A DNA stretch of 64,000 nucleotides from Squalus acanthias. Lineage: Eukaryota. The notes beneath the pieces were generated by a model, which was not told the origin of the DNA, searched no databases, and saw only the letters and a program-made list of their open reading frames with translations. The translations under genes were made by a program, and so were the position numbers. Location of the stretch: assembly GCA_030390025.1 (NCBI GenBank), contig CM059432.1, forward strand, positions 66,962,001 to 67,026,000. Reading direction: 5' to 3'. The stretch's first letter is position 1. Every line of letters starts with the position of its first letter. Positions 3,176 to 63,463 of the stretch are shown here, piece after piece.

Positions 3176-3903
3176 AGAGCAATGGTCCTAACACCAATCC
3201 CTGTGGGACTCCACTAGGAACCGATTCCCACGCAGAACCACTATCATTAATAATAACCTTCTGCTTGCAAGAATGGAACCAAGTCATTATCCAACCCAAG
3301 ATCTTCCCACCAATCCCACCGAACGCTATCTTATTAAGTAGCCAATTGTGTGGCACCTTGTCAAAAGATTTTTTTAAATCCAGGATACTATGTCAACATC
3401 CACCGACCTGGAAGCTGCCTCAAAAAATTTAACCAGGTTGGTATTCTATAAGTCATATCTTTAATAGTTCCTCTTTCAAGGAGGTCATTTAAAGTATCTT
3501 CAAAATCCCTCTAGCAACTTGCCTATAACCAAAGGTAAGCTAATGGGCTTGTAATTTCCTGATTCTGACTTGTTGCCTTTTTTGAATATTGGCACCACAT
3601 AGGCCTCTCTCCAGTCCATGGGAACAATCCTACACCAGGGAGAGATGTTAAATACATAAGCAAAGGGCTCGTTGAGCACGGCTCCCAATTCTTTGAGCAC
3701 CCTTGGAAGAATGCCGTCAGAACCCAATCTGTTTTGAGACCCTTTATCCTAGCCAGGACTATATCCATATCCTTTCAATTTTAGAGTCCATTGTACAATG
3801 CATTATTGGTAGCTGTGATGCGGAGATCCCGGTGTTGGACTGGGGTGGACAAAAGTGAGAAGTCGCACAACACCAGGTTATAGTCCAACAGCTTTATTTG
3901 AAA

Positions 3904-3941
3904 TCACAAGCTTTCGGAGCGGCTGCTCCTTCGTCAGGTGA
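3904..3941 (-). ncRNA. Minimal hammerhead ribozyme motif (mirror copy)
   Basis: Exact reverse complement of 3949-3986. Confidence 0.75.
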
Positions 3942-3948
3942 AGTAACT

Positions 3949-3986
3949 TCACCTGACGAAGGAGCAGCCGCTCCGAAAGCTTGTGA
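3949..3986 (+). ncRNA. Minimal type I hammerhead ribozyme motif
   Basis: tcac-CTGACGA-a-ggagc(agcc)gctcc-GAAA-gc-TT-gtga: stem I, catalytic core, stem II and palindromic AAGCTT stem III. Confidence 0.75.
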
Positions 3987-4269
3987 TTTCAAATAAAGCT
4001 GTTGGACTATAACCTGGTGTTGTGCGACTTCTCATTATTGGTAGCTGACCATTGTGTTCTGGAGATCACTTGAATCTGCTCCAAAGAATCCTTCAACTGC
4101 CTGATATAATCCTTAATGGTCCTCTGACTTCGAACGTAGCCAAAACAAATTTGTCATTGCTACTAGTTATTCACTGTTTTCTTCTCCACTGACCTTTCGG
4201 CTGCTCCGACAGCAGCTTTTGTTGTCTTAAGCTGAGCTTGACATTATCCCTGTTCTCCTGAGAACTGTT

Positions 4270-4658
4270 CAAGGGAAGAGTCCAGAAATTTGCTGATAGC
4301 ACAAAGTTTTGTGTGGGAGTTAGGTTAGTTGATGAAATAAATAGTCTGCAGGCGGATCAGGACGCATTGAGGAATGGACCCATGTGCTGTAGATTTATTT
4401 CAATGTGGATCAGTGCAGCGTAATGCATGTGGCCTGGGATAATTCCAGACATGTATACAGCATGTAGGATCATTCACTCAACACTGCTGAGCAGGAGGAC
4501 CTACGAGTTATAGTTCATGAAATATTTAAGGTACATATGAGGCTGTTATGAAAGAGAACAGGGTGTTAGAGTGTTTATCTAGGAGAATTAAATATAAAAC
4601 TGGAAGAACAATTCTTACCTTGTGCCAAGGCTTAGGTTCGGTCACATGTCAAATACTG
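4270..4658 (+). mobile_element. Highly decayed CR1 RT fragment
   Basis: Remnants such as KFADSTK and FNVDQCSVMH. Confidence 0.6.
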
Positions 4659-41967: not shown

Positions 41968-44494
41968 GGAGGCGATTTTTTCACTGGAGGTGAGATGGAG
42001 GCGGGTTTCAGCTTGGGTGTGTCAGAAACTCACCTCCACTGATAGTTTTCAAAAAATTGAGATTTTCCCATGATTGTCCACTTGATTTCAGAGGTGCCTT
42101 GTTCAATTAGTGTTTTGGGACTGAAACTCACCTCTGTTGGCAGCACTTTTCCAGTCTGATTTTATGGCTTCTTGCTCCCTTGGCTCATTCCACAGCATTT
42201 CTGCTTCTCCTGCACCACCTCCAACATCTTTTGAGATACGAATATCCAATTCCAAGGCAAGGACCTACCCGAGGCTCTCAGATGAGGCGCTGCAACTGTT
42301 GTTTGAGGGGGTGAGAACTAGCATGGAGGTGCTCTTCCACTCATCTCGGAGGAAGAGGCCTGCCAACAAAACCAAGGCTGTTTGGGTACAGCTGGCAAGG
42401 GATATAACCTCCAGATCTGTGTGTAGTTTGGGAGACTGCTTCTGTGTATTGATGAAATGCCATCCTTGTTGGAAAGCATTAACATGATTTGATGCCAAAA
42501 TGTTGGCGTTATGCCATCTGTTACTTAGCCTTAGGCAGCTCCACATTGCGGGCAACGCCACACTTGCGTTGTCAGGTTGGTGGCCTGACTGAAAGGAGGC
42601 CAGAGAGTCAAGTCCATTGTCAATGAAGTCCTAGCATGGAGCTAAGGACATGTGCCAACTTGGCCAACCTATACAAATCTGGCCATGATAAGTTCATCCC
42701 TTGCATTCCTGGCAGCCATGTGCTCGCGTGCTGCCACTGCCGCTGGTCGATACACCGGCACTCTGACCTCCTCCTGCTGCTCCTCCTCCTGCTGCTCCTC
42801 CTCCTGCTCCTCCTCCTCCAGATCCTCCTCCTCCTCCTTAGCTTCCTCCTCCTCCTCCTCCTCATCTGAGGAGGGCTGGAACTGAGCCACTTGCTCATCA
42901 GGAAGCTGCAAGCCACGACGCTGTGCGATGTTGTGCAGTTGCACAGCAGACCACAACAATTCTGGAGACCCTGAATGGTGTATACTGCAGGGCTCCACCT
43001 GATCGGTCAAGGCAACGGAAGCGCATCTTCAACAACCCAATGGTCTGCTCTAGGATGGACCTGATCGAAGTGTGGCTGGCATTGTAGCGCTCTTCAGCCT
43101 CGTTAGCTGGCCTCCTGATCGGTGTCATTAGCCACTTCTTCAGGGGATAGCCTTTGTCACCAAGGAGCCATCTATTAAGTTGGTTTGGTGGATTGAAAAG
43201 CGGAGGAACATTAGAGTGCCGCAGGATGAAAAAGTCATGGCAACTGCCAGGGTACATGACGCAAACATGCAAGAACTCCTTCTTGTGGTTACACACCAGC
43301 TGTACGTTGAGGGAGTGGAAGCCCTTTCGGTTGACAAAGATAGCTGGGTTGTGATGGGGCGCCCTAAGGGCCACATGTGTGCCGTCTATGACGCACTGCA
43401 CCATTGGCATGCCTGCCATATTTGCAAATCCAATCAAATGGGCGGTTATACTTGCTTGATCCCTTGTGAACTGGATGTAATTGTGGGACTTAGCAAAAAG
43501 GGCATCGGAAACTTGGGTGATGCACCTGTGGGTCGCTGACTGGGAGATGCCGCTGATGTCTGCTAATGATCCCTGGAAGGAGCCTGAGGCAAAGAAGTTG
43601 AGTGCGGTGGTGACTTTGACAGCCACTGGTAAGTGGTGTCCACCCGTTCCTCTGGGCACCAGGTCTTGCTGCAGCAGGCCGCAGATCTCTCGGACAACCT
43701 CTCGCGAAAGTCTCAACCTCCTTTGGCACTGCTGCTCACTCATGTTGAGGTAGCTCATCCTTTGTCTGTAAACCATCTGTGGGGGGTATCTCCTGCGGTG
43801 TGGTGCCTCAATACGCTGGCGCCTTCTGCCCTGCGCAGCATCAGGTGGCTGAGCAGGAGGTTGGGGCTCCTGCTGATGTTGCTGCTGAGCTGCCTGGTTC
43901 TGCTGCTGCCCTGGATGGTCCTCATCCTCATCTGAGGTCCAAGGTGAAAGGAAATGAATGTTTCCCATTCTGCTTGCAGATGCCTCTCTGGGGAAGCGCT
44001 CATTGTAAGCGGGGTGAGGGTCTTCACAGGAGGTCCCACAGTTGATGGAGTCAAGCTGTAGCACCTCCGACTTCAGAAGGCCTTCTAAAAGTGCTCAGAG
44101 ACCTTTTAAAGCCAAGGTCTGGCACCTGCAAGTAATCCTTGCTGCAATAAACGCTGTCTTGTTAGACCTGCAGCAGTGAGGAGGCCACCCACGAGTCAAC
44201 CCACCAAGTTTACCTGGCGTGGTTCAGGAGTTGCGTGAAGCACGCCGAAATGATGGGAAATTCACGAGGGCCTCTCAAAATAAGATTAGAGAGGCCCTTA
44301 ACAATCATTTGCAGGTGTTAATTAACGCAATGACCAGCTGGAGGCGGCAGCGTTTCCCGACCTCCAAAACCGGCACCGGCAAAATCCCATGGAGGCGGGT
44401 TGGAGCCGGGTTTCTGACCCGACCTCAGTAATTTGAATTTTCCCGCCTTTCCTGACTCCAAACCTGCCTCCTCCAGTGTCAGAAAATTGCCCCC
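41968..44494. mobile_element. Harbinger element with near-intact transposase and truncated Myb gene
   Basis: TIR ggaggcgatttt / aaaattgccccc; ATA TSD; Myb stub PRLSDEALQLLFEGVR at about 42260-42420 on +. Confidence 0.9.
42669..43968 (-). pseudogene. PIF/Harbinger (HARBI1-like) DDE transposase, one frameshift near 42940
   Basis: [12 protein letters not shown]...IDGTH...LLGDKGY...[21 protein letters not shown] and the acidic tail lie in the 42669 frame. Confidence 0.9.
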
Positions 44495-63430: not shown

Positions 63431-63463
63431 AATATTTCAGATCGATGACCTTTCCTCAGAACT
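63431..63463 (-). ncRNA. Degenerate hammerhead motif (second PLE family)
   Basis: agtt-CTGAGGA-a-aggtc(atc)gatct-GAAA-ta-TT; the 3' strand of stem I is lost at the Harbinger junction. Confidence 0.45.

Follow-up and report, generated by a model that had tools for sequence, protein, structure and literature searches.

A 5'-truncated, head-to-head insertion of a probable Penelope-like retrotransposon with opposed hammerhead motifs in Squalus acanthias

Anatomy of the insertion and its surroundings

In a 64,000-nucleotide stretch of the Squalus acanthias genome (contig CM059432.1; hereafter the window), a palindromic insertion occupies positions 3801–4047 and carries one minimal hammerhead motif on each strand (Table 1). 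Exact checks confirmed two features reported in a first-pass annotation of this DNA, namely that the two 89-nt arms are perfect reverse complements around a single centre nucleotide, A3945, and that the insertion is flanked by a target-site duplication (TSD) in the form of identical 15-mers. The insert between these repeats measures 217–219 nt and the duplication is strictly 13–15 bp long, because positions 4033–4034 double as the last two nucleotides of the right arm. The annotation had taken the insert to be the palindrome alone, which did not hold, as the left arm only is continued by a 40-nt one-sided extension that reaches the duplication and corresponds to the 'tail' of Penelope-like elements (PLEs). 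Since this extension is identical at 36 of 40 positions to the tail (18876–18915) within another insertion of the same family, it is element sequence. Loose ends of contigs from other family copies extend upstream of the arm with letters that differ from A3945, and because these copies run upstream of 3946, both arms are truncated. A3945 itself may be non-templated, or may be subfamily sequence with a 1-nt overlap. At the other end, the loose-end consensus before 3816 closes with the same final four letters in all four runs mapped, at an agreement of only 0.40–0.46, and the tail may extend a few further bases in many copies.

Table 1. Features of the insertion, its neighbor and the related copy in the window.
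Feature	Positions	Strand	Basis
Target-site duplication, left copy, 13–15 bp	3801–3815	.	Exact repeat
40-nt PLE 'tail', this arm only	3816–3855	−	Match to second copy; tail definition from available text of PMC8557442 and PMC11167929
Left arm: 5'-truncated pLTR end, continuous with tail (129 nt in total)	3856–3944	− (sense)	
Minimal type I hammerhead motif, C3 3937, H17 3908	3904–3941	−	Descriptor
Single unpaired A, head-to-head junction	3945	.	Exact check
Right arm: tail-less 5'-truncated pLTR end, 89 nt, last 2 nt within duplication	3946–4034	+ (sense)	
Minimal type I hammerhead motif, predicted cut after U3982	3949–3986	+	Descriptor
Target-site duplication, right copy	4033–4047	.	Exact repeat
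Decayed LINE reverse-transcriptase fragment adjoining the insertion	3198–3724	−	44–55% identity to window LINE ORF at 31411
Second family insertion, equal layout	18464–18924	.	Window comparison and descriptor

The second family insertion within these 64 kb has a duplication of its own (18464–18477 and 18911–18924, 9–14 bp). Its inverted, tail-less arm contains a hammerhead (18479–18569) and ends at the same family position, its tailed arm (18840–18915, 76 nt) has a 40-nt tail and no hammerhead, and the 36 nt common to both arms are identical. The arms are separated by a 270-nt spacer (18570–18839) that has no other match within the window and may be either upstream pLTR sequence belonging to the inverted arm or captured sequence. 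Both insertions, then, are made of a tailed end and an inverted tail-less end, with both end points repeated and each with its own TSD.

The Pfam matches among the 26 of 30 long open reading frames (ORFs) of the window that were scanned are to transposon-type domains. Continuity of the adjoining LINE across the insertion was not found, as the left flank matches and the right flank (4033–4360) gave a best E of only 0.069. In a well-preserved LINE at 30470–34044 (+), an 877-aa endonuclease–reverse transcriptase (RT) frame comes after a GDSL esterase-like ORF, and a Myb/SANT-like ORF (35905–36486, +) and a DDE_Tnp_4 ORF (42898–44094, −) are presumably the usual Harbinger-type pair. Nested inverted repeats of 80–90 nt with 81–93% identity at 24656–25626 are probably two SINE-like copies in opposite orientation.

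Hammerhead motifs and the predicted fold of the RNA

A descriptor for the minimal type I hammerhead found one motif per strand, with C3 at 3953 (+) and 3937 (−), and gave four matches in the 64-kb window versus none in any of 100 first-order Markov resamples. The plus-strand motif contains the core CUGANGA / GAAA / NUH together with stems I and II. Stem I has 4 bp (3949–3952/3983–3986), the core begins at 3953, and an unpaired A3960 precedes a 5-bp stem II (3961–3965/3970–3974) that includes the pair G3961–C3974; GAAA follows at 3975–3978, the palindromic AGCT at 3978–3981, and H17 at U3982 (3908 in the mirror motif). The descriptor thus predicts the same cut after 3982 as the annotation had, and the AATAAA that it placed 3' of the hammerhead is present at 3992–3997. 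Among the four distinct motif sequences, stem I reads TCAC/GTGA, TTAC/GTAA, AGTT/AACT or TTCAC/GTGAA, paired in every case, and the stem III palindrome is AGCT or ACGT. This variation fits a conserved fold, and is no independent test of it because the descriptor itself selects for pairing. An Rfam covariance-model scan of 3500–4400, which had been put forward as a check, returned 10 matches at E ≤ 10, none of them to a hammerhead family and all below gathering score. Matches to miRNA and sRNA families reflect the hairpin and were set aside, being likewise below gathering score (36.4 versus 80 bits for the miRNA).

The literature is cited here and below for what the available text of each source states. 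The minimal hammerheads of PLEs are described as having a conserved unpaired base at 9/10.1 and a palindromic 15.2–16.2 (PMC4209133), so that the 'extra A' after CUGACGA, which the annotation had singled out, is a standard published feature. The present motifs share both, along with the type I core, the pair G10.1–C11.1, a 4-bp stem I, and occurrence mostly as solo truncated copies and in opposite-strand pairs. Stem II is shorter, with 5 bp here compared with 7–8 bp in the Schistosoma consensus. Dual minimal hammerheads on opposite strands are mentioned at distances of 100–700 bp (PMC4209133), whereas the present pair is complementary throughout and just 16 nt separate one C3 from the other. 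The same source reports minimal hammerheads to have no activity as monomers and weak activity as dimers. Elsewhere in the window, a minimal hammerhead of a different family is found at 37660–37780 (−), with C3 at 37762, stem II AGGTC/GACCT, the palindrome ACGT and H17 at 37734; the inverted repeats detected in the window include no inverted partner for it. A decayed relative occupies 63435–63463.

Because the two motifs lie on opposite strands, the two back-to-back ribozymes that had been proposed stand as one motif per strand, but any single transcript would contain one sense hammerhead and its full antisense, and with only one sense hammerhead in each read-through RNA a dimer in cis is impossible. 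Folding predictions for the read-through RNA of either strand give stems I and II a pair probability of 0.0. The 247-nt RNA is predicted to fold at −195.1 kcal/mol (z −27.7), and forcing stems I and II would cost about 67 kcal/mol (−128.5 versus −195.1), which agrees with the earlier proposal that the ribozyme is masked in read-through RNA. The predicted probability of the two stems is 0.86–1.0 in an isolated 50-mer, 0.02–0.07 in the 89-nt right arm and 0.50–0.89 in the tailed arm. With its hammerheads predicted to be zipped into an 89-bp duplex, the locus is most probably a relic with no activity.

Abundance of the family and its relation to Penelope-like elements

Contigs from four of 24 listed sequencing runs were mapped on 3400–4450, including X1 and X5, which are from two studies of the same organism (organism A) and one of which may have supplied the assembly itself. 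Contig depth summed across the insert in X1 was 6.5 × 10^5 to 4.2 × 10^6, compared with 11–25 in unique flank bins, a ratio of about 10^5 that is not a copy number, and the family was present in all four runs mapped, as a dispersed, multi-copy sequence. In X8, a run guessed to be of RNA, pieces of the family were present and depth was slight or nil over the flanks adjacent to the insert, a pattern uninformative on expression.

Both junctions of the insertion with its flanks were recovered in each of the two studies, the left one by flank-to-tail contigs (X1 record 2, 3599–3843; X5 record 10, 3599–3841) and the right one by arm-to-flank contigs (X1 record 8, 4009–4450; X5 record 16, 4004–4450), at depths of 10.6–16.9 that are comparable with those of flank-only contigs. 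As these two junctions fix opposite orientations of the element, the inversion is real. The contigs run unbroken through both copies of the duplication, which suggests that the X1 and X5 samples have no empty allele. At least 15 of the 114 joints reported link the left arm, or its tail, to the right arm. Among the 15 joints listed, no empty site was found, and a ribozyme-defined truncation was rejected, as they do not clearly cluster at the cut site. A contig of organism B that starts at 4033 (X6 record 24, depth 2) was considered as evidence of an empty site and is uninformative.

PLE insertions are described as highly 5'-truncated, often with an adjacent inverted truncated copy and a tail of 30–40 bp at one end (Craig et al. 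2021, PMC8557442), and palindromes at head-to-head junctions have been reported in a layout of direct and inverted pLTRs with a tail of 31 bp and a TSD of 9 bp (Arkhipova et al. 2013, PMC3846280). The complex insertions of endonuclease-bearing (EN+) PLEs in these two sources resemble the present locus in their head-to-head inverted 5'-truncated pLTRs, the palindrome at the junction, the 30–40-nt tail at one end only and the target duplication. The locus differs from these insertions in that its arms are only 89–129 nt long, contain no ORF and have an exactly symmetric centre, and its TSD of 13–15 bp is longer than the 8–10 bp of the rotifer examples (PMC3846280).

A search of metagenome contigs with a degenerate hammerhead pattern gave two loci, L001 and L002, which, with 677 nt in common at 99.6%, amount to roughly a single observation. 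Their DNA match to the arm (87.5%) is confined to the 40-nt hammerhead region, which was chosen by the search pattern, and includes stem I bases outside that pattern. Remnants of retroelement proteins are encoded on both contigs. In L001 this is a match to RVT_1 (E 1.5 × 10^−5, below the curated cut-off). In L002 it is an ORF of 177 aa, for which the Atlas gives eukaryotic GIY-YIG proteins as the best clusters (0.97; PF01541 on 23–34% of members) and in which a Cys-rich stretch, such as is described for Neptune/Nematis (PMC8557442), stands ahead of the GIY-YIG-like domain. The ORF gave no Pfam match, and its assignment is by the Atlas and visible motifs. On L002, positions 1–1470 comprise this ORF (+), a 109-nt inverted duplication (1–109 versus 983–1091) and then the hammerhead (+).

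Because the sequences of L001 and L002 have other origins and have been rearranged, they link the family to PLE proteins only indirectly. Their proteins had no match in the 64-kb window at E ≤ 1, and no ORF with RT and GIY-YIG domains tied to this exact pLTR family was found in the window. Exact-pattern scans that included the post-hammerhead segment gave no match in the metagenome contigs and none in prokaryote genomes, and two matches of this segment to viral contigs were dismissed as chance, with no similarity past the 17-mer.

Taken with the published PLE layout of inverted arm, one-sided tail and TSD, the hammerhead features and the contigs with RT and GIY-YIG remnants support the relationship to PLEs that the annotation had suggested. 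We suggest, with a probability of about 0.9, that an endonuclease-bearing Penelope-like retrotransposon of very high abundance gave rise to the locus as a non-coding insertion with severe 5' truncation; two priming events, considered below, are the slightly likelier route. Such an insertion is real but ordinary, as a tailed pLTR end placed head-to-head with an inverted, tail-less pLTR end is the usual form in this class.

Two primings, fold-back and other readings

The likeliest course of events would begin with a GIY-YIG/RT protein, supplied in trans, that nicks both strands of an AT-rich site 13–15 nt apart. Each 3' end would then prime reverse transcription of element RNA, one at the tail end and the other 40 nt upstream, both cDNAs would halt just 5' of the hammerhead and be joined head-to-head, and repair would fill in the palindrome, with the hammerheads as passengers of the pLTR. 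Read 5' to 3', the duplication passes on each strand into element sequence in antisense, which begins with the end of the tail on the top strand and with the pre-tail site on the bottom one. This arrangement would be expected if both strands, once nicked, had primed cDNA at the published pair of start sites.

In vitro, both strands are cut and extended by the Poseidon protein with a preference for ATT, and RT starts at two sites that bound the tail, at +111–118 from a start codon at stem II; the hammerhead of the element is assisted by the protein, and insertion in vitro can do without it (PMC11167929). As in the Poseidon element PAc of Anolis carolinensis (Frangieh et al. 2024, PMC11167929), the hammerhead here is followed by an AC-rich region and two tail-bounding ends. 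The tailed end is at +116 from A3959, which on our own reading of that paper is taken as the equivalent of the PAc start codon, and this falls within the PAc window of +111–118; ATT motifs occur at the target. The position of the PAc start codon reads AAG here and the frame, followed by eye, stops after 17 codons. At the tail-less junctions of both insertions (4033–4039 and 18472–18478), the A-rich target end resembles the element's own tail-boundary sequence, hinting at microhomology in priming. We tentatively propose, at somewhat less than even odds, that bilateral target-primed reverse transcription is recorded genome-wide in such stubs, each strand having primed its own cDNA at one of two internal RT starts. 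No paper stating such a model for PLEs was found in literature searches, from which subscription papers were mostly beyond reach.

The chief alternative concerns the mechanism only and keeps the same PLE origin. One cDNA, or an antisense template, may have snapped back at the centre and copied itself, as in the model of PMC3846280, where junction palindromes are read as self-priming, with the tail-less end produced by endonuclease resolution. This route is a serious possibility, if also short of an even chance. It accounts more simply than two independent stops for the perfectly symmetric centre, in which every variant is common to both arms, and two of the 15 listed joints (of 114) in other copies are likewise symmetric within 1 nt. 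The remaining 13 of these 15 are asymmetric by 8–66 nt, although the joints are short contig pieces, some of them at the edge of the reference. In the second insertion, moreover, only the tail-less arm has the hammerhead and only the tailed arm has the tail, so that, if it arose in one event, neither arm was copied from the other, and this favors two separate primings. On these sequence comparisons we place two primings slightly ahead of fold-back, and both routes may occur.

That the palindrome is maintained, or used, as a source of hairpin RNA for small-RNA silencing of the family is improbable. The strong predicted fold and wholly masked ribozyme would suit such a role, as would junctions seen in two studies at depths like those of unique flanks, but folding strength is a consequence of the palindrome itself, and perfect arms need no selection. 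The absence of mismatches (0 of 89) bounds arm divergence at less than 3.3%, and the 36 nt shared by the arms of the second copy and the copies of the TSD are identical too, so the homogenisation invoked in the annotation is not needed. If the rate of 7 × 10^−10 per base per generation of the epaulette shark (PMC10587355) is comparable, this bound allows an age of up to about 2 × 10^7 generations, and the four intact CpGs per arm would point to the younger side of that range. Many similar junctions occur genome-wide, so the locus is not special in this respect, and no host gene was found among the 26 of 30 long ORFs scanned. Were small RNAs nevertheless made from such hairpins, each insertion would bring with it a trigger for silencing the element itself.

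Still less probable is that the locus is a MITE-like or retrozyme-like palindromic mini-element able to propagate itself as a unit of 217 nt. The terminal inverted repeats of MITEs and other non-autonomous DNA transposons abut the TSD on both sides. Here the 40-nt one-sided tail separates the left arm from the TSD, so the inverted arms are not both terminal, which does not fit a MITE. The unit is compact and TSD-flanked, and a similar centre is crossed in X1 record 7, X6 record 22 and five X1 contigs with an extra base at 3944, but junction positions vary widely among copies and the second copy differs in its arm lengths. Non-LTR retrozymes, reported from one chondrichthyan genome, are like the locus in being non-coding and PLE-derived with a type I hammerhead, but they are head-to-tail tandem units (bioRxiv 10.64898/2026.07.22.740005, as far as its available text goes). 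The present stub is head-to-head with its units on opposite strands, so no same-strand hammerhead pair is possible, which does not fit a retrozyme either. Least credible is that the perfect palindrome is an assembly artefact: inverted PLE structures do trouble assemblies (PMC8557442) and none of the 32 contig pieces listed, of about 28,900, spans the centre identically, but the junction contigs of both studies fix the opposite orientations and the TSD frames the whole unit.

The locus itself is minor, being one of very many PLE stubs, and its value is as a clean example of how inverted pLTRs and tails arise in PLE transposition, a step that still lacks an explanation and has been called an open mechanistic question (PMC8557442). 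If bilateral priming is correct, the inverted pLTR and the one-sided tail would be explained in one step, replacing the self-priming model. A genome so rich in short, TSD-bounded copies could separate two primings from fold-back by counting.
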